DNA from: Candidatus Saccharimonadota bacterium
GTDB taxonomy: Bacteria > Patescibacteriota > Microgenomatia > UBA1406 > GWC2-37-13
Direction: 5' to 3'
DNA length: 32,000 nucleotides
Assembly: GCA_016700135.1 (NCBI GenBank)
Contig: CP065004.1
Coordinates: forward strand, 450,001-482,000
This document shows positions 3,806-25,735 of this stretch, one piece after another. A program made the translations under genes and the position numbers. The first letter of the stretch is position 1; the number at the start of each line of letters is the position of its first letter. The notes beneath the pieces are model-generated. The model was not told where the DNA came from and searched no databases. It worked only from the letters and a program-made list of their open reading frames with translations.

Positions 3806-4687
3806 TTACTTCATAAATTCGTCGGGCAGTAAACTATCTTTTACCCATTTTCCTTCAAAACGTGCTGAATTTTTTTCAGTTATTCTATCAATGGATCTAT
3901 TACCATTAGCATCTTTCGTTTCTTCAAATCTATCAATACCGAATTGAACTGCTAAAACTTCAGCACCCTTTTTACTGTTAGGGAGATCAAAACTAGCAAG
4001 TTCATTTGCATCAATCCAAACGAAATATTCAATAGAACTATGATTAGGACCGAAGTTCGTAGGGAGCCATGAATCGCCTTGTTTGGATTTAAAGTATAAG
4101 ATAACCCTCCATGCTTTATTTTCTTTAGTAACTGAATGTGCAGCATGTGCTTCAACTCTTAAACCAGGTACTAATGTCTTACTGTATTTTTCTTCCCACC
4201 ATTCTGGGTTCTGTACTTCTAAAAAGGAGCGATTAAAAAATTCAAAAGTAACAATATCACCATCAAAAACTTTTTTTGATTCTATATATTCCTTAATTTT
4301 TCCTATCGCTAATTTGTCCAATTCTTCTTCATTAACGCTGGATGTCGTTTTTTTCAAATAATCTACAAAAAAAGCAAAACCTATGAATTCTTTATCCTTA
4401 ACGGCATATGGTTTACCAATTAGGTGAAAATTCCTTTCAACGGTTTTAAACCCTTCTTCACCCCACCATCTAACGTTATATCCATTAATATTAATAGATT
4501 TAGCATGAGAGACTGTAGTCTTGTGAGTGGACATAAAATTCAAAATATCAGTTTTACGATAGCGTCTATCACCTCTATCGTTTATCTTTACAGCAATCAA
4601 TACTTTTTCACGATCCCATCTACGAAGTGTTTCCGGATGCACATTAATTAGGTCTGCTGCTTCTGTAATAGTTAGTAATTGCTCCAT
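3806..4687 (-). CDS. MerR/excisionase-type HTH protein with an uncharacterised 230-aa C-terminal domain
   Basis: The N-terminus LLTITEAADLINVHPETLRRWDREKVLIAVKINDRGDRRYRKTDILNF is a typical HTH_17/MerR-like DNA-binding domain. It is the first gene of a two-gene minus-strand unit with the HEPN-like ORF. Confidence 0.6.
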   Translation of the reverse strand: MEQLLTITEAADLINVHPETLRRWDREKVLIAVKINDRGDRRYRKTDILNFMSTHKTTVSHAKSININGYNVRWWGEEGFKTVERNFHLIGKPYAVKDKEFIGFAFFVDYLKKTTSSVNEEELDKLAIGKIKEYIESKKVFDGDIVTFEFFNRSFLEVQNPEWWEEKYSKTLVPGLRVEAHAAHSVTKENKAWRVILYFKSKQGDSWLPTNFGPNHSSIEYFVWIDANELASFDLPNSKKGAEVLAVQFGIDRFEETKDANGNRSIDRITEKNSARFEGKWVKDSLLPDEFMK

Positions 4688-4756
4688 ATCTATATTATCT
4701 TATATTTACTTAAACAATATTGCAAGCGCAATTTTATTCAAAATCTTTTTTAAACT

Positions 4757-4795
4757 GTCTCAAATGTCTCATTTGAGCTTAAATATGAGACATTG
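4757..4795. promoter_or_regulatory. nested inverted/direct repeats in the promoter region of the HTH-HEPN operon (candidate operator)
   Basis: TGTCTCA occurs twice (4757-4763, 4766-4772). CTCAAATG at 4759-4766 pairs with CATTTGAG at 4770-4777. AATGTCTCAT at 4763-4772 pairs with ATGAGACATT at 4785-4794. The site is 70-110 nt upstream of the start codon at 4687. Confidence 0.3.
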
Positions 4796-4805
4796 TATAC
4801 TTGAA

Positions 4806-4915
4806 CTATAAGGCTAAACTGGTTCGAATCCGAGTTCCGCCTGAAGTTGAGATTCGAACGCTATAAGGACGATCTGGTTCTAGTCCGACACGCCCAGCAC
4901 TACTAGAAACTTCGT
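4806..4915 (+). repeat. two tandem ~55-nt units, each starting CTATAAGG and each forming a hairpin; unit 1 contains a tRNA T-loop-like GGTTCGAATCC
   Basis: In unit 1, GTTCGAATC (4822-4830) pairs with GATTCGAAC (4850-4858). In unit 2, TTCTAGT pairs with ACTAGAA. Both units share CTATAAGG-N6-CTGGTTC-N-A-N-TCCGA. The repeats sit at the AT-rich island / core boundary. Confidence 0.4.
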
Positions 4916-4953
4916 TTCAGCTCATTTTCAGGTTCCTTCTTATAATTAACCCT

Positions 4954-5349
4954 ATGAACAAAAATACAATCATTATCCTAACAATCGTGGTTCTCGTTAT
5001 TCTTGGAGGAGTCGTATTTCTTACTCCGAAGAACCAACAGTCAAATATAAAGACTCAAACACAACAGACTGAAACTACAAATCAGGCAACCTCTTCGGAC
5101 CAGATTCAGAATGAGTACTCGATCGCCGATGTCCGGGCACATGGTACTGAATCAAGTTGCTGGAGTGCCGTTAACGGCAAAGTATATGATCTTACAAACT
5201 GGATTAATCAGCATCCAGGCGGACCGGAAAAAATTACTCAGATCTGCGGGATAGACGGATCTCAAGGATTCAACGGCCAACATGGCGGACAATCAGAACC
5301 CGAAAGCATGCTAAAAGAATTTTATATAGGGAATCTTCAAGGATCGTAA
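4954..5349 (+). CDS. membrane-anchored cytochrome b5-like heme-binding domain protein
   Basis: N-terminal TM helix. CWSAVNGKVYDLTNWINQHPGGPEKI...GFNGQHG matches the cytochrome b5-like fold with its HPGG motif. Confidence 0.7.
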   Translation: MNKNTIIILTIVVLVILGGVVFLTPKNQQSNIKTQTQQTETTNQATSSDQIQNEYSIADVRAHGTESSCWSAVNGKVYDLTNWINQHPGGPEKITQICGIDGSQGFNGQHGGQSEPESMLKEFYIGNLQGS

Positions 5350-5391
5350 ACAGTATTTAGTACGGGTAAAAATCAGTGCTATAATGAAAGT

Positions 5392-5880
5392 ATGTTTAAA
5401 AAGGTTCTGATAGGTACCACTGTATTACTCCTTTTTACCATAGTCGCGGAAGCTGTATATCTGTTTGTTTTTAAAACGAAAGCAACGACAGAGACTGCAA
5501 CGGTTGCAAAAACGGCTTCGGACGTATCTACCGCATCTACCCCTTCTTCTTCCCGTGAAACGGAGCAGGATACACTGAAAGTGAATAAGATACTCGGAAT
5601 TTACTTGTCATCAGCAAGCCCGATGTTTGCAGCAGGGGAAATCAGGACTACACTGCAGGGATACCTTGTTAAACAACCGCAACTTGAACAGGAATCCATA
5701 ACTTTTGAGATGAATACAATGAGCACCGGTAATGAGAATAGTACAATCAAAGCTTATTTCGAAAATACAAAGTTTGTAGATGAAAACGGGAAACCGATTG
5801 ATTATCATACTATTAAGCAAGGCGATCAAATGTCTGTCGTTTACATTTACAATTACAAAGGCTCTAGACTAGCACATTAA
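5392..5880 (+). CDS. hypothetical membrane-anchored protein
   Basis: 162-aa ORF with an N-terminal hydrophobic helix and a Thr/Ser-rich linker. No family recognised. Its last 17 nt overlap the reading frame of the IS transposase remnant. Confidence 0.45.
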   Translation: MFKKVLIGTTVLLLFTIVAEAVYLFVFKTKATTETATVAKTASDVSTASTPSSSRETEQDTLKVNKILGIYLSSASPMFAAGEIRTTLQGYLVKQPQLEQESITFEMNTMSTGNENSTIKAYFENTKFVDENGKPIDYHTIKQGDQMSVVYIYNYKGSRLAH

Positions 5881-6526
5881 CAATTTGTAATAGTTCATTG
5901 TAAAGGATCGATGGGGATTTGCTCCATCTCCATTCACACTCTTTCAAGTGTAATGGAAAGTTTTTCTTTACACCATTGAACTTAACGAGACGTCTTTACA
6001 AAAGGACCAGAATGACTCTATGCCATTGATATGGACCCCTTTGTATTTGAGAACTCATTTTTCTTGTGATTGATTCTCAAATGTTTGTCATACCCGACAT
6101 CAACAAGTCCGTTGTATCCGCTCCACGAATCTGAATATACAGTACTGTTCAAGTCAATCTTTCCTTCATAACAGCATGTAGCGTTCTTCTTTTACAGTTT
6201 GGAATGATACGAGTAAATACACGTCCTTGACGCTCATATATCCCAAATACTACCTGCTTAAATGACGTCCCACGACCTCTTTTATTTGACTTGCCTCTCA
6301 TCCTTCGAGGTCCAAAGTATGATTCATCAATTTCTATCTCACCACCAACATATCGTTGCATCTGGTGCACTTGGTGATGATATATGAGTTGACGAATATT
6401 ATTGTAATATTTGTTGACTGTATTGCGGTTGAGACCCAAAATACCAGAGGTCTGTGTAGCACTCAGATCGTGTGCAAAACACCATAGTATCTTTTTCTCT
6501 TGTATTTTGATATCGGCCTATTGTTA
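5864..6526 (-). pseudogene. IS1595-family (IS1016/ISXO2-like) transposase, degraded
   Basis: The minus-strand translation falls in three frames. (1) ...IQEKKILWCFAHDLSATQTSGILGLNRNTVNKYYNNIRQLI...GGEIEIDESYFGPRRMRGKSNKRGRGTSFKQVVFGIYERQGRV...KERLT*. (2) IDLNSTVYSDSWSGYNGLVDVGYDKHLRINHKKNEF...HINGIESFWSF. (3) RRLVKFNGVKKNFPLHLKECEWRWS. These are all conserved IS1595-type blocks. There are frameshifts near 6150 and near 6000, and no Met start. Confidence 0.75.
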
Positions 6527-6576
6527 CAAACCATACCTCTAGTTTAGCACTACTCTGCTAGTTACAATTACAAATT
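5864..6576 (-). mobile_element. decayed IS1595-family insertion sequence (approximate bounds)
   Basis: Transposase remnant plus a 10-bp inverted repeat, AATTTGTAAT (5882-5891) / ATTACAAATT (6567-6576). The IR is short and AT-rich, so the boundaries are tentative. Confidence 0.45.
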
Positions 6577-6612
6577 AGATCAATATTTTACCGAGATTGT
6601 AGTCAATCCCGT

Positions 6613-6792
6613 ATGAAAAAAGTATTTAAGAAGCCGGCCATCCGTTCAAAAAAAGTACAGGTGAACTTTTTCCAGTCATCTCGTGTCATCGACGGCGAAA
6701 TGCTGCTGTCACATGCACTTCTTGCCCAGTCCGGATGCGGATACACCATTTGTCAATGCACGCAATGCAATTGTACCGGCGTCTGTATCTAA
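6613..6792 (+). CDS. 59-aa Cys-rich putative RiPP precursor peptide (absent from the ORF track because it is under 60 aa)
   Basis: My translation is MKKVFKKPAIRSKKVQVNFFQSSRVIDGEMLLSHALLAQSGCGYTICQCTQCNCTGVCI*. It has a basic Cys-free leader-like N-terminus and six Cys in the last 18 residues. The stop is 8 nt before the radical SAM start on the same strand. Confidence 0.6.
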   Translation: MKKVFKKPAIRSKKVQVNFFQSSRVIDGEMLLSHALLAQSGCGYTICQCTQCNCTGVCI

Positions 6793-6800
6793 CATAAAGT

Positions 6801-8201
6801 ATGTCAGAAACTACAGTATTACATCGCCACAGAAATCTCTACACCGACAAGGTTGACGATTACCAGTTTGTATTTAAACCGGTATCTGAGCGTGGTGTAA
6901 CTGTTTTGAATAAGCCCTCTGCATTTGTCTTCAATCTCATAAATGATAAACGGACAGTCGGGGATATTTTCAAAGCAGCCAAAAAAAAGGATCCCGCCGT
7001 CACATTGAAAGATATTGAAAAAATTATTGAAGATCTGGTAAATACTGAGATCGTATACGGTGATGAACTGCGACCGAAATATAAAGCGGCATTCCCTGCT
7101 CAGCGCAGATTGACTGCCTGGTTTCATATTACCAATCAGTGCAACCTGCGATGTACTTACTGTTATATCTCCAAAACGGCACATAAAATGACCGATGCTA
7201 TTGGTGAAAAGACCATTGATAAACTGCTCACTGACGGAAAGAAGAACGGATTTAATACCGTGAAACTTTCGTTCGCAGGCGGAGAATGTCTCCTTGAGTT
7301 TAAACGACTCATTCACTTTGTGGAATACGGTACAGAAAAGGCAAAAGAGCTCGGTGTTAAGATTGAGTTTGGAGTCGTGACAAACGGGGTGCTTATTACC
7401 GATAAAGTGGCAAAAACACTTAAAAAATATAATATTCAGGTCGCAGTATCTCTTGATGGCTTCGGAAAATCAAATGATATGCAGCGCGTATTTGCCGACG
7501 GATCAGGAACATTCAAATATATCATGCGAGGCATTAAAACACTCCAGAAACACGGCAACCAAGTCTTTCTATTGATGACAATCACAAGACACAATATTAA
7601 AAACATCCCCGATCTTTTTAAATTTTGTCTTGAAAACAGAATCATCTTTGCTACTAATTTGTTCCGTGATAATCCCTGTGCATATTCTGACTTGGGGATG
7701 GATATGAATGACGCTGCGAAGTATCTGAAAAAGTCATTTAAACTGGCATACAAATATGTACCAGAGATCAATGATCCGGAGTATTTTGCCGTGCTGGTTG
7801 ACAGTATGTTTGACCGAGTACAGGTTTCCCGTGCTCACAATCGTGCCTGCGGTATCGGGAATAACTACATCACCATCTCACATAAAGGAGATGTGGCTAT
7901 TTGCCCGATGACGATTTCTGATCCCGTCGGATCCATAAACGATGAAGACATTGTGCATACCATGATCAAAAAAAGTTTTATTTACGGGAAAAAACTCATT
8001 ACGGAGATTGCTGCCGGTTGTCAAACCTGTCCATGGAGACAGGTCTGCTGCGGCGGTTGCCCTCTCGCCTATCTCCATAAAGAGGCAAGTCATGCTCAGC
8101 CTGACTACTGTGCGGTCTATAAAGCTCTCATTCCTGAATTACTTCGTATTGAGGCACGGCGTATTATTAAATGGGGGATGATTGAGAACGCAATCCATTA
8201 A
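6801..8201 (+). CDS. radical SAM/SPASM-domain peptide maturase with a PqqD-like (RRE) N-terminal extension
   Basis: CNLRCTYC (C114/C118/C121, nt 7140-7163) is the CxxxCxxC radical SAM cluster motif. The C-terminus has C350-X12-G-X4-C368, C407-X2-C-X5-C-X3-C420 and C437, which is the canonical SPASM seven-Cys pattern (nt 7848-8111). Residues ~30-90 (VLNKPSAFVFNLINDKRTVGDIFKAA...IEDLVNTEIV) resemble a PqqD-type peptide-binding domain. Confidence 0.85.
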   Translation: MSETTVLHRHRNLYTDKVDDYQFVFKPVSERGVTVLNKPSAFVFNLINDKRTVGDIFKAAKKKDPAVTLKDIEKIIEDLVNTEIVYGDELRPKYKAAFPAQRRLTAWFHITNQCNLRCTYCYISKTAHKMTDAIGEKTIDKLLTDGKKNGFNTVKLSFAGGECLLEFKRLIHFVEYGTEKAKELGVKIEFGVVTNGVLITDKVAKTLKKYNIQVAVSLDGFGKSNDMQRVFADGSGTFKYIMRGIKTLQKHGNQVFLLMTITRHNIKNIPDLFKFCLENRIIFATNLFRDNPCAYSDLGMDMNDAAKYLKKSFKLAYKYVPEINDPEYFAVLVDSMFDRVQVSRAHNRACGIGNNYITISHKGDVAICPMTISDPVGSINDEDIVHTMIKKSFIYGKKLITEIAAGCQTCPWRQVCCGGCPLAYLHKEASHAQPDYCAVYKALIPELLRIEARRIIKWGMIENAIH

Positions 8202-8960
8202 TTCCTTCTTTCTTTTTGTAAAAATAATCTTCTGAAGAGGAACAGTACTTTCAAGTGCTGACAGTAAATTCCGCGTTTCGGATAATTGACTCTGGGCAGA
8301 TATCAACTGCAATGAGACACGTCTTATTTCATCAGTTGTTGGTTGGGATATCTGACAGGCATTTCCCTGTTCTAGAATAAAGATTGTAGAGATTGCATAC
8401 CGTTTGTATGTTTTGCTAAAGTTGTAATCTCTTTCGAGGAACGGCCCCTGATAGAAGTAAAATGCCTCACCTTCCTGTTTGATGTACCCTTCATCATCTG
8501 CAAGTATGGGATATTCCTTCTTCAACATTGATACGAGGGTGGTTTTCCCTATTCCTGACTCTCCGATATAAATCGCGGCTTCCCCATTGACCAGATTTGC
8601 AGAACAGTGCATCACAAAACCTGTTTTTGACAACAATTGCCCGACCGCAGATTTCAGTAAATAAATAAACTGTACTCTGCTTATATGATAGAACGTGGAA
8701 ATATGATTGTATGCAACAGGGGAATAAAAATGAATAAATCCTTTCTTTTTAGGACTTTCATAGATATCAAAACCTTTAGCTTCTAAAAATTCAATAATAA
8801 AATCCGTTGAAGACGGTTCGAAATCAATGATAAAACCTTCATTATGGAGAAAAATCTCTTTACAGAACCGTTCCGGAGTCACTTTATTCTGTTTATCGGA
8901 TGACCGGTGAAATACCAGTTTAATGATAAATCCTGCAATCGAAAGATATAGTATTTGCAT
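8139..8960 (-). CDS. HPr kinase/phosphorylase C-terminal-domain-like P-loop protein
   Basis: MHCSANLVNGEAAIYIGESGIGKTTLVSML (Walker A at nt 8538-8564) follows the HprK catalytic-domain pattern H-x-(v/l)-x-G-x-(l/i)-x-G-x-SG-x-GK(S/T). Its 3' end overlaps the radical SAM 3' end by 63 nt (8139-8201). Confidence 0.55.
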   Translation of the reverse strand: MQILYLSIAGFIIKLVFHRSSDKQNKVTPERFCKEIFLHNEGFIIDFEPSSTDFIIEFLEAKGFDIYESPKKKGFIHFYSPVAYNHISTFYHISRVQFIYLLKSAVGQLLSKTGFVMHCSANLVNGEAAIYIGESGIGKTTLVSMLKKEYPILADDEGYIKQEGEAFYFYQGPFLERDYNFSKTYKRYAISTIFILEQGNACQISQPTTDEIRRVSLQLISAQSQLSETRNLLSALESTVPLQKIIFTKRKKELMDCVLNHPPFNNTPCLNTK

Positions 8961-9129
8961 ATCAATAGTATTTGTGACAACTATATCGAAGATTAATTAA
9001 AAACTCAATCCCCAAAGATTCTCCATAAGCAAATTGAATCAGCAGCAGATTATATATCTCAAGATTCGAATGCATATACAGTTTCCTTACATATCACTCT
9101 TTTCTCAGTGTCCTCCTATACTTGGACCT

Positions 9130-10380
9130 ATGAACAGTGTTGCGGTTGTGTCAATAATCGCATTAGTTTTAGCGATTGTTCTTGGAATTCTGAAACCCAA
9201 GCTCAACGTCGGACTGATTGCAATTGCCCTGAGTTTTCTCGTCGGGTCATTTTTTGCCGGTTTGACCGACAAAGAAATTGCCGTACTCTTTCCTTCCAAT
9301 CTGTTTCTGATGCTTGTCGGCGTTACTTCATTCTTCGGCGTTGCCGAGCAGAACGGATTATTGGACGGAATTGCTGCCCGGAGTATCCGGCTGATTCGCG
9401 GCAGGAGAGAACTTCTTCCGATTGTTTTCTTTATTTTTTCGTTTGTCCTTTCTGCAATCGGACCCGGAAACATCGCCGCAACTGCAGTTCTTGCACCTAT
9501 CGGGATGGGGCTTGCTTATAAACTAAAAGCTAACCAGCTTCTCATGGCAATACTTATTGTAACAGGAGCGAATGCCGGGGCCTTTTCTCCGGTTGCGCCA
9601 ACCGGGGTGATTTTGAGCGGACTTGCATCAGACATACAAGCCGGAGAAACAAAAACGATTCTGCAGGTTTTTGCAATGTCTGCACTGATCCAATCCGTAT
9701 CTGCTCTTTTGGCGTATGTTTTGTTCAACAGGATACAAAAGAAACAGGAGCCCGCGAAAGAAATTCCCTGTGAAGAATGTATTCCTCTCACCTCATATCA
9801 GTGGCTTTCCGTGGGTGCCATTCTGACTGTGCTTGCTGCAACAATTCTATTTGATGTTTCGCTGGGTCTTGCCACCTTTACCGGAGCTCTTCTCCTTATG
9901 CTTTTTGACACGAACATTGCCGAAAAAGTTGTTGCAAGAATTCCTTGGGAAACCATTTTGCTTGTCACCGGTGTCAGCATCCTTATCGGAGTGATGGAAA
10001 AAGCCGGAGGTCTGGAAATGGCAACCGATATTCTTGCGGCGTATACCCCGCAAGGACTCATCCATGCAGCTCTTGCATTCATCACCGGACTCGTCTCTGC
10101 CTACAGCAGTTCTTCAGGAGTCGTCATGCCGGCTTTTATACCTCTTATCCCTGGTATTATTGAAAAAATGGGAGCCGGGAATCCTGTGACAATGCTCATT
10201 GCAATAGCTGTCGGATCACATATGGTTGATGTCAGCCCGCTCTCGACACTCGGAGCTCTTTGTATTGCCAATGCAAAAGAAGATCGGCAGAAGCTTTTTC
10301 AAAGGCTCATGATCTGGGGATTATCCATGGCCGTGTTCGGATCAATTCTTTCGTTTCTGTTCCTCGACCTGCTCATTTAA
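9130..10380 (+). CDS. multi-pass anion/ion permease, ArsB/NhaD-CitMHS (citrate-transporter-like) superfamily
   Basis: About 416 aa of consecutive TM helices. LFPSNLFLMLVGVTSFFGVAEQNGLLDGIAARSI is typical of this permease superfamily. I prefer the ATG at 9130 (MNSVAVVSII...) over the TTG at 9034. Confidence 0.5.
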   Translation: MNSVAVVSIIALVLAIVLGILKPKLNVGLIAIALSFLVGSFFAGLTDKEIAVLFPSNLFLMLVGVTSFFGVAEQNGLLDGIAARSIRLIRGRRELLPIVFFIFSFVLSAIGPGNIAATAVLAPIGMGLAYKLKANQLLMAILIVTGANAGAFSPVAPTGVILSGLASDIQAGETKTILQVFAMSALIQSVSALLAYVLFNRIQKKQEPAKEIPCEECIPLTSYQWLSVGAILTVLAATILFDVSLGLATFTGALLLMLFDTNIAEKVVARIPWETILLVTGVSILIGVMEKAGGLEMATDILAAYTPQGLIHAALAFITGLVSAYSSSSGVVMPAFIPLIPGIIEKMGAGNPVTMLIAIAVGSHMVDVSPLSTLGALCIANAKEDRQKLFQRLMIWGLSMAVFGSILSFLFLDLLI

Positions 10381-25281: not shown

Positions 25282-25554
25282 TTATTTAACTCTTCTTTTA
25301 AGACTTTTACCAGCGGTAAAGCCCGGTGTTTTTGTTGCAGGGATTTTGATTTCTGCACCAGTTTGAGGATTGCGTCCTTTTCTGGCTGCTCGTCCTCTTA
25401 CGAGGAATGTTCCGAAACCAGTAACCACTACTTTTTCACCTCGCTCCATTGCTTCAGCGACTGTGTCAAAGACTGCATTGACTGCATCTTTTGCTGCTTT
25501 GGAGGTGAGTCCGGCTCTTTTTGCTACTTGAGCAATAAGGTCAGCTTTTGTCAT
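25282..25554 (-). CDS. hup: DNA-binding protein HU
   Basis: [73 protein letters not shown] is a textbook HU/IHF-family sequence. 90 aa. Confidence 0.95.
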
Positions 25555-25735
25555 GTATTATTTCACCTCCCTTCTTTGACTGTGTATGCTTCTACTCTCT
25601 TCAGCCATAGGCCGATCGTCTGATGGACGAAGATAGAGCGTAGGAGTAAGATATAACATAATCTCCTTTACAGCTTATCTCCTACTGGGCCTCTTGTCAA
25701 TCCGTACTTAGTTGATCGTATTGCTACAATCTATA

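Follow-up and report, generated by a model that had tools for sequence, protein, structure and literature searches.

Here we analyze a four-gene cluster located in a 32,000-nt stretch of contig CP065004.1 (positions 450,001 to 482,000; hereafter, the window), which we propose to be a resident cassette for a ribosomally made, post-translationally modified peptide (RiPP). The cluster consists of the genes for a membrane-anchored protein, a 59-aa Cys-rich precursor peptide, a radical S-adenosylmethionine (SAM) maturase that combines a SPASM domain with a predicted N-terminal RiPP recognition element (RRE), and a P-loop protein of the ScmC/HprK type (Table 1). All four proteins have exact matches in GenBank, in a metagenome-assembled genome of Candidatus Roizmanbacteria, where they are encoded on a contig of 1,448,136 bp. 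The precursor open reading frame (ORF) ends 8 nt ahead of the maturase gene, and the P-loop gene is convergent to the latter, with the 3' ends overlapping by 63 nt (8139..8201). An earlier note on this DNA correctly delineated the last three genes, the products of which are 59, 466 and 273 aa long, but viewed them as a cassette of three elements. To these, a fourth conserved gene has to be added, which had been missed because the remnant of an IS1595 family insertion sequence (IS) separates it from the peptide gene.

Table 1. Genes, predicted domains and motifs of the cassette, with positions in the window.
Feature	Position	Strand	GenBank accession or model	Remarks
Membrane-anchored protein, 162 aa	5392..5880	+	QQS44455.1	fourth cassette gene
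Degraded IS1595/ISXO2 transposase	6018..6439	-	NF033547, PF12762	two frame-shifted pieces (6149..6439, 6018..6152)
Precursor ORF, 59 aa	6613..6792	+	QQS44456.1 (hypothetical protein)	MKKVFKKPAIRSKKVQVNFFQSSRVIDGEMLLSHALLAQSGCGYTICQCTQCNCTGVCI
Predicted leader, M1-Q39	6613..6729	+		motifs KPxI(K/R)xxKxxxNFF and LLAQ
Predicted core, S40-I59, with stop codon	6730..6792	+		SGCGYTICQCTQCNCTGVCI; six Cys
Radical SAM/SPASM peptide maturase, 466 aa	6801..8201	+	QQS44457.1 (radical SAM protein)	
Predicted N-terminal RRE (PqqD-like winged helix), aa 14-81	6840..7043	+	AlphaFold2 model	
CX3CX2C motif, aa 114-121	7140..7163	+		C114, C118, C121
SPASM Cys residues	7848..8111	+		C350, C368, C407, C410, C416, C420, C437
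ScmC/HprK-like P-loop protein, 273 aa	8139..8960	-	QQS44458.1	
Walker A motif, aa 133-141	8538..8564	-		GESGIGKTT

The C-terminal stretch of the 59-aa ORF (GCGYTICQCTQCNCTGVCI) indeed contains six Cys residues, in positions 42, 47, 49, 52, 54 and 58. At the Cys content of the 32 long ORFs in the window (1.03% of the residues), the nominal probability of finding at least six Cys in 19 aa is 2.8e-8. However, Cys density alone is no proof of a gene because an 86-aa ORF (25363..25623, plus strand) that also contains six Cys in 19 residues is equally dense. This ORF is merely the antisense of a gene for an HU-like DNA-binding protein (25282..25554, minus strand), which shows that chance alone can produce Cys-dense mechanical ORFs in the window. 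The decisive evidence is conservation which, at the level of sequence comparison, confirms that the precursor gene is real. The 59-aa ORF recurs in relatives at 93%, 85% and 80% identity. A search of the protein database retrieved two homologs, P0121 (93%) and P0122 (85%), and only these, since such short ORFs are rarely called; the other precursors were read from the respective loci by hand or with a script. In locus L084, where the maturase is 78% identical to that of the window, a 59-aa ORF occupies the equivalent position, and the two precursor genes differ by 21 synonymous and 12 non-synonymous codon changes, which implies purifying selection.

The maturase possesses both the CX3CX2C signature and the complete seven-Cys SPASM motif that had been reported for it, the latter being the motif for two auxiliary [4Fe-4S] clusters, and all ten Cys residues are invariant in an alignment of 28 homologs, which places the protein in the radical SAM/SPASM superfamily. 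The Pfam matches include Radical_SAM (74.6 bits), Fer4_12, a weak SPASM domain (this model matches 23 of the 28 homologs) and a weak PqqD domain (16.3 bits vs. the cut-off of 23.4; 7 of the 28 homologs matched). The PqqD-like N-terminal extension postulated in the earlier note is supported by the AlphaFold2 model built from the 28-homolog alignment (pLDDT 90.3, pTM 0.88). In this model, the N-terminal stretch (pLDDT ~90–97) is predicted to adopt the beta3-alpha3 arrangement of RRE-fused RiPP maturases, with strands at residues 14–18, 21–25 and 33–36 followed by helices at 38–46, 53–63 and 69–81. A Foldseek search of the PDB with the model gave the RRE-bearing CteB (5WHY) as the first match, aligned over the full length (E-value 3e-22), followed by TigE, the anaerobic sulfatase-maturating enzyme (anSME), ChlB, SuiB and SkfB. 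CteB is the thioether-forming maturase of a SCIFF peptide, and TigE is a cyclopropyl synthase. In the sequence search of the PDB, the best match was anSME (E-value 6e-45), which covers the core only, the alignment starting at residue 115 and thus leaving out the RRE; CteB came next (2.6e-42).

None of the curated NCBIfam models reaches its cut-off on the maturase. The best resemblance is to PapB (NF047865; 150.7 bits, cut-off 340) and the second best to QhpD (TIGR03906; 136.5 bits, cut-off 453); the scores for DynA (130 bits, cut-off 450), anSME (TIGR03942; 121.6 bits, cut-off 349), the SCIFF maturase ScfB (TIGR03974; 117.7 bits, cut-off 425) and YhhB (105 bits) are lower. The refuting case named in the earlier note, an enzyme of a non-peptide family such as the sulfatase maturases with a sulfatase nearby, is not borne out by these hidden Markov models (HMMs) and the gene neighborhoods: anSME is below its cut-off, the RRE is there, and no sulfatase genes, nor any qhp genes, were detected in any neighborhood examined. 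A database search at E < 1e-10 shows that the maturase family comprises 244 clusters; none of the listed homologs carries a specific functional name, and those with named taxa come from Patescibacteria, Microgenomates, Roizmanbacteria and Beckwithbacteria, most of the matches being unnamed. A scan of a genome collection with the maturase alignment, for which generic SPASM patterns were used, gave at least 80 loci; among the matches listed, only L001–L004 are family members, and the other 76, which are SCIFF-like or other maturases, were set aside.

The P-loop protein, described previously as HPr-kinase-like, proves to have the corresponding fold and motifs. Eight residues (H118, S120, G138, K139, T141, D155, D156 and Q171) are invariant in 34 diverse members of the family and form an H...GxSGxGK(T)...ADD arrangement, which we equate with the P-loop and catalytic Asp residue in HprK/P. 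In the precomputed Pfam annotation, the identical protein P0123 and its homologs are assigned to PF27840 (ScmC), a membership that comes from an annotation listing without a bit score. In local HMM comparisons, the matches are weak and located around the Walker A motif: PEP carboxykinase (PEPCK), 25 bits; the ScmC equivalog TIGR04249, 24.9 bits vs. the cut-off of 125; and HPr(Ser) kinase/phosphorylase (TIGR00679), 17.2 bits vs. the cut-off of 240. For eight representatives of the family, ScmC is the best model at 19–35 bits, followed by HprK and the HprK-related kinases A and B, and the HprK_rel_A/B models score at most 26 bits on family members. The AlphaFold2 model (pLDDT 72, pTM 0.75) retrieves ATP-dependent PEPCK (E-value 1.5e-6, TM-score ~0.5) and HprK/P (1KKL; E-value 7e-6) in Foldseek searches, so that the predicted fold and the His/Walker A/Asp-Asp pattern jointly assign the protein to the HprK/P-PEPCK superfamily. 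The family is large: a profile search against 1.84 billion representative sequences detected 3,439 proteins at E < 1e-3, among which 732 remain at a threshold of 1e-10 and 236 at 1e-30, with few exceptions full-length at ~265 aa; a metagenome scan with a 9-sequence alignment gave at least 31 loci, five of which are close among the matches listed. Taken together, these data place the P-loop protein on a branch of its own within the ScmC/HprK superfamily; judging from the conserved motifs, it is probably active as a phosphotransferase.

Two other identities were considered for this protein. The name in GenBank, PEP carboxykinase (ATP), is certainly a misnomer: the protein consists of 273 aa, compared to ~530 aa in PEPCK, and yields 19–25 bits over ~50 residues vs. 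cut-offs of 369–815. An ABC-type ATPase, suggested by the ABC transporters on top of the PDB sequence search, is rejected because the fold search recovers PEPCK and HprK and because an ADD motif follows Walker A; the ABC matches span only ~30–40 residues around the Walker A motif.

We examined the neighborhoods of 13 complete genes for maturase homologs in 12 independent loci, together with two copies truncated by contig ends (L087 and L097); several further loci that were reached through the P-loop protein were read as well. A short Cys-containing ORF is located directly upstream of the maturase gene in 12 of the 13 cases, the exception being the first copy in L088, and is retained over the whole range of homologs, whose identity falls from 78% to 38%, as the earlier note required of a true precursor. 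The other half of that check, co-occurrence with an HprK-like gene, holds for the loci with one type of leader peptide and not for the rest, the P-loop gene being absent from the neighborhoods of 6 of the 13 complete genes.

Type A, with a leader of the kind found in the window, includes, besides the window, L084, L085 and L086 (78% maturase identity), L081, L082 and L083 (60%), L124 (39%), and L088b and L090 (38%), along with L087 and L097 as partial members. The complete type-A gene order is membrane protein (160–216 aa, with one N-terminal transmembrane helix), peptide (50–60 aa), radical SAM/SPASM maturase and P-loop protein, and all four genes recur together in L084, L081, L124, L088b and L090, which span maturase identities from 78% to 38%. 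The P-loop gene is usually convergent and overlaps the 3' end of the maturase gene, by 63, 63, 72, 27 and 4 nt in five independent loci (the window, L084, L090, L088 and L124), so that there is no space for a terminator between the two genes; in L081 and L097, they are encoded on the same strand. Type-B loci (L001, L002, L089, L091, L092 and L125; 38–43% maturase identity) consist of the peptide and maturase genes only, and an HMM scan of all six detected neither P-loop nor membrane protein genes. Their peptides have a different leader, M..(K/D)AQ(V/I)I..., and acidic cores based on D-C-A-C, such as ...LYCQDDCACENNN and ...SQCGDCGDCACAEGKIKASNKADCDCAC. Thus, in the loci examined, the P-loop and membrane protein genes co-occur only with the type-A leader. 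The maturases of the two locus types do not split into two clades in a crude neighbor-joining tree.

The type-A precursors share the leader consensus M-K-K-x-x-x-K-P-x-I-K-x-x-K-x-x-x-N-F-F...L-L-A-Q-S/G, and we predict that the precursor in the window divides into a leader and a core between Q39 and S40. In the alignment of 10 type-A sequences, the only invariant residues are P8, C42 and C49, with F19 and A38 coming close; the L084 and L081 precursors have Ser or Lys in front of the motif Pro and are looser in the rest of the motif but occupy the same alignment columns. Hence the six-Cys spacing highlighted in the earlier note is present in the window, whereas it is not a feature of the family: close relatives have five (P0122) or four (L084 and L081) Cys residues, and C42 and C49 are the only invariant ones. 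Most type-A precursors have a Ser or Thr no more than three residues ahead of the first Cys, and in the majority of the precursors with either leader type, an aromatic residue adjoins the first conserved Cys (GYTI, LYCQ, LYGQC, FVCF, CYSCW). The precursors of both leader types match no NCBIfam or Pfam peptide family. In L090 (~5830..5990), the precursor frame (...KPTIKTTRIKLSFF...ASGCHHVGGGSCYN) lacks a start codon in frame, and a 1-nt shift in an A-run would join it to an upstream GTG-KKI start; the break may be an assembly error or indicate a pseudogene.

The 162-aa membrane-anchored protein is the fourth conserved gene product of the cassette. A single transmembrane helix at the N-terminus is combined with a beta-rich domain at the C-terminus that carries a conserved ...GD..(I/V).Y.YNYK motif, and the protein has no match in Pfam or NCBIfam. 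None of the four cassette proteins reaches a curated NCBIfam family. An HMM scan of the window identified the gene at 234 bits, and in L084, L081, L088, L090, L124, L095 and L096 a homolog immediately precedes the precursor gene. In L084, the closest syntenic relative, the membrane protein gene overlaps the precursor gene and there is no IS, whereas 733 nt separate the two genes in the window, a gap occupied by the IS1595 remnant (NF033547, 55 bits; PF12762, 41 and 20 bits). IS1595-like ORFs also flank an unrelated copy of the cassette (L095, 5184..5871). Immediately upstream of the cassette in the window, there is a gene for a membrane-anchored, cytochrome b5-like haem-binding protein (4954..5349, plus strand; Pfam, 69 bits), which is not conserved beside the cassette in relatives.

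On the right flank, the cassette is followed by genes for a CitMHS/MatC carrier, thioredoxin, YflT, a type-IV-pilin-like protein, pantoate ligase and MutL. This gene order also occurs in the metagenome contigs L085 and L087, and the synteny indicates that the cassette is ancestral at this chromosomal site, in agreement with the residency proposed earlier from composition; the G+C content of the cassette genes (0.37–0.46) brackets the window mean of 0.406. The permease that the earlier note had weakly linked to the cassette as a possible exporter is a CitMHS/MatC-type carrier according to Pfam. It is rejected as a component, and the caution was well placed, since the syntenic L087 has no carrier between the thioredoxin and P-loop genes and no other cassette contains one.

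Among the characterized systems, the closest likeness is to SCIFF peptides and ranthipeptides (CteA/CteB and ScfA/ScfB), in which the gene for an RRE-fused radical SAM/SPASM enzyme of ~450 aa likewise directly follows that for a short Cys-rich precursor, and it is CteB that provides the best full-length structural match. However, the maturase is far below the ScfB cut-off, the precursor fails the SCIFF model (TIGR03973), the leader and the Cys pattern differ, there are additional HprK-like and membrane protein genes, and the host is a member of the candidate phyla radiation (CPR) rather than Clostridium. PapB, the freyrasin maturase, and QhpD, which form thioethers between Cys and the beta or gamma positions of Asp/Glu, are the nearest NCBIfam families, and the D/E-rich DCAC cores of the type-B relatives are compatible with this chemistry. 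PapB substrates carry Cys-X3-Asp/Glu motifs, and QhpD goes together with adjacent amine dehydrogenase genes, qhpABC. Unlike in these systems, the core in the window contains no Asp or Glu, both HMM scores are far below the cut-offs, and qhpABC genes are found neither in the window nor in the related loci. With anSME, the similarity extends over the radical SAM and SPASM core, whereas anSME itself has no RRE. Because membership in none of these families was recovered, the system in the window is set apart from SCIFF, PapB, QhpD and anSME.

The earlier note recognized no class with a pairing of a radical SAM/SPASM enzyme and an HprK-like protein; there is, however, an in silico precedent. The SynChlorMet cassette, defined computationally (TIGR04249-51), combines ScmC with two radical SAM/SPASM proteins, ScmE and ScmF, and with a homolog of PqqD; to our knowledge, its precursor has never been identified and the system has never been characterized experimentally. 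The cassette in the window shares with it the combination of a PF27840 family protein and a radical SAM/SPASM enzyme. In addition, the relative L081 encodes a second radical SAM protein and a free-standing PqqD, and distant relatives of the P-loop protein adjoin other radical SAM/SPASM enzymes of ~350 aa, including ScmF-like ones (L117), one of which scores 333 bits. Thus, the HprK-like and radical SAM/SPASM pairing is a broad, recurring theme. The differences from SynChlorMet are the low TIGR04249 scores of the protein in the window and of the eight family representatives, the presence of one RRE-fused maturase of another subfamily instead of ScmE and ScmF (neither is among the 25 best NCBIfam families for the maturase in the window), the membrane protein, and the identifiable precursor. 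The cassette is best read as a resident RiPP system, itself uncharacterized, that is related to both the ranthipeptide and the SynChlorMet systems.

A further parallel is provided by lasso peptide pathways, in which HPr-kinase homologs phosphorylate linear precursor peptides and from which phospho-glycosylated products have been described (PMC8498205). As in paeninodin-type clusters, an HprK-fold P-loop enzyme is here encoded in a RiPP locus, and the nucleotidyltransferase and glycosyltransferase genes adjacent to the cassettes in L088 and L081, respectively, are reminiscent of the phospho-glycosylated lasso peptides. Unlike lasso clusters, the cassette contains no lasso cyclase or protease genes, and its core ends in Ile, not Ser.

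We consider it likely that this is a RiPP cassette in which the radical SAM enzyme modifies the 59-aa peptide and, with less assurance but still on balance, that the four genes function together as follows. The precursor would be produced with a basic ~39-aa leader (KPxIK...NFF...LLAQ) and a 20-aa Cys-rich core, and the leader would be bound by the predicted RRE at the N-terminus of the maturase. The radical SAM center would then cleave SAM and abstract hydrogen from a core residue, with Thr, Gln, Asn, Tyr and Ile available, and a Cys thiol, held in place by the auxiliary SPASM clusters, would close an intramolecular thioether, giving a ranthipeptide-like product; the invariant C42 and C49 would be the key thiol donors. 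By definition, the Cys sulfur of a ranthipeptide is bonded to a non-alpha carbon of another residue, and that of a sactipeptide to an alpha carbon. By analogy with CteB, we rate the chances of thioether chemistry as about even. The HprK-like protein might phosphorylate a hydroxyl of the precursor with ATP, with S40 and T45, which flank the first Cys, as candidates, or might act in another way through the shared leader; by analogy with the lasso pathways, peptide phosphorylation is a tentative assignment that we hold to be somewhat short of an even bet. The membrane protein could be involved in processing, export or immunity.

Several observations weigh against this scheme. The maturase is far under every curated cut-off, those of PapB (151 vs. 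340) and SCIFF (118 vs. 425) included, and the models of C–C-forming maturases score little lower (DynA, 130; YhhB, 105). Only two of the six Cys residues are conserved. The core in the window lacks both Asp and Glu, which are the usual acceptors of PapB and QhpD, and its last residue is Ile rather than the C-terminal Ser on which lasso kinases act. The IS1595 remnant severs the upstream membrane protein gene from the peptide gene, so that it is uncertain whether the cassette is expressed in this genome. Finally, two loci (L095, 3351..4885, and L096, 481..1986) encode a membrane protein, a type-A peptide and a P-loop protein with no radical SAM gene or remnant nearby; these peptides are very Cys-rich, with 8 and 9 Cys residues, and the role of the P-loop protein may thus be independent of the radical SAM enzyme.

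Among the alternatives, the same RiPP cassette could install a radical link other than a thioether, namely, a C–C cyclophane or C–O bond on the aromatic Y44 (C-G-Y-T-I), an epimerization or a cyclopropanation, with the Cys residues serving as metal-binding or disulfide sites. This possibility is made plausible by the close scores of the C–C-forming HMMs and by TigE being the second structural match, and it agrees with the aromatic residue next to the first conserved Cys. Nevertheless, the two Cys are the only invariant residues of the core, L124 has the non-aromatic Leu in the position of Y44, and the best matches in both structure and HMM searches are thioether formers, so we regard it as unlikely.

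We assign a similarly low probability to the view that the ScmC/HprK-like protein, the membrane protein and the KPxIK...NFF...LAQ leaders define a new, largely CPR-restricted class of RiPPs, with ATP-dependent phosphorylation by the HprK-fold enzyme as its hallmark and the radical SAM enzyme exchangeable. Under such a scheme, the phosphate could remain as a stable modification, or it could serve as the leaving group in a dehydration, with Cys addition as the next step. Most likely, the cassette is not a new category but a radical SAM/SPASM RiPP system with an ScmC-type partner, the cross-linked product of which is of an uncharacterized type.

A related and slightly less probable scenario is that the P-loop protein, the membrane protein and the type-A peptide constitute the primary system, that the radical SAM/SPASM enzyme is optional tailoring, and that the Ser/Thr phosphate is the final modification or a leaving group. 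L095 and L096 fit this scenario, as do the Ser or Thr that precedes the first Cys in most type-A precursors and the presumed action of maturase homologs on type-B peptides without a P-loop protein. So does L094 (1047..1619, minus strand), in which a type-A leader and a short Cys core (...LLAQSTCGSS) continue in frame into a Hint/intein-like domain (PT-HINT, 44 bits) and the gene is convergent with a P-loop gene; this fusion could be a self-cleaving variant of the precursor. Yet, L095 and L096 are short metagenome contigs, such that the radical SAM gene could lie elsewhere in these genomes; five independent loci besides the window keep the four genes tightly packed, often with overlapping radical SAM and P-loop genes; and no lyase or cyclase gene is present.

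It appears still more doubtful, in fact very unlikely, that in this particular genome the cassette is a decaying remnant, an operon uncoupled by IS1595 whose peptide is no longer made or modified. The IS remnant separates a gene pair that overlaps in the closest syntenic relative, and a promoter and terminator scan of positions 5300–9200 revealed no convincing promoter upstream of the peptide gene, both of which are compatible with decay. However, the scan gave fewer promoter-like sites than shuffled controls, so that this negative carries no weight, the four ORFs are intact and full length, and the IS is itself a degraded element. Furthermore, a peptide/maturase pair 93–97% identical to that in the window (P0121 and P0001) occurs in another sample, on the same 2,882-nt contig. 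Last, the notion that no peptide natural product is involved, with an anSME or QhpD-type maturase, a true PEPCK and an incidental small ORF, to which the top PDB sequence match and the GenBank name of the P-loop protein might point, is highly improbable and effectively excluded given the HMM scores far below the cut-offs (121.6 vs. 349 for anSME and 136.5 vs. 453 for QhpD; 21–25 bits vs. 369–815 for PEPCK), the anSME alignment that leaves out the RRE, the length of the P-loop protein, the absence of sulfatase and qhp genes from the neighborhoods examined, and the purifying selection on the small ORF.

The CPR bacteria (Patescibacteria) have tiny genomes, usually reported with few or no biosynthetic gene clusters, and the cassette family is apparently widespread among them. 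The full-text literature search returned no relevant paper on ScmC or SynChlorMet and none linking HprK with SPASM enzymes, and among the papers that jointly mention Patescibacteria, RiPP, radical SAM and precursor, none describes this cassette. Graspetide RiPPs have been predicted in CPR bacteria, with SPASM enzymes in some of the loci (PMC8939145). The short precursor identified here gives a tractable handle on the ScmC/HprK-like proteins that recur beside radical SAM/SPASM enzymes, and its product may mediate interactions of CPR episymbionts with hosts or competitors. Should the new-class interpretation turn out to be true, the ScmC family, with hundreds of sequence clusters, would acquire its first substrate and function, and ultra-small symbiotic bacteria would be makers of elaborate modified peptides.

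The accessory genes differ between cassettes. In L088 (2750..12662), the two paralogous maturases are part of a dense RiPP-like island that also includes a free-standing PqqD, a B12-binding radical SAM protein and a fusion of an S24 peptidase with an NTP_transf_5 domain; a convergent, unassigned gene for a 265-aa protein follows the first maturase gene and an ScmC-like gene follows the second. The L081 locus (3964..9047) additionally encodes a 331-aa radical SAM protein, a free-standing PqqD (33 bits with the lasso-type PqqD HMM) and a GT2 family glycosyltransferase. In L124 (3118..4320), the gene for a trypsin-like protease overlaps the start of the membrane protein gene, and this protease is a candidate for the leader peptidase of the system.

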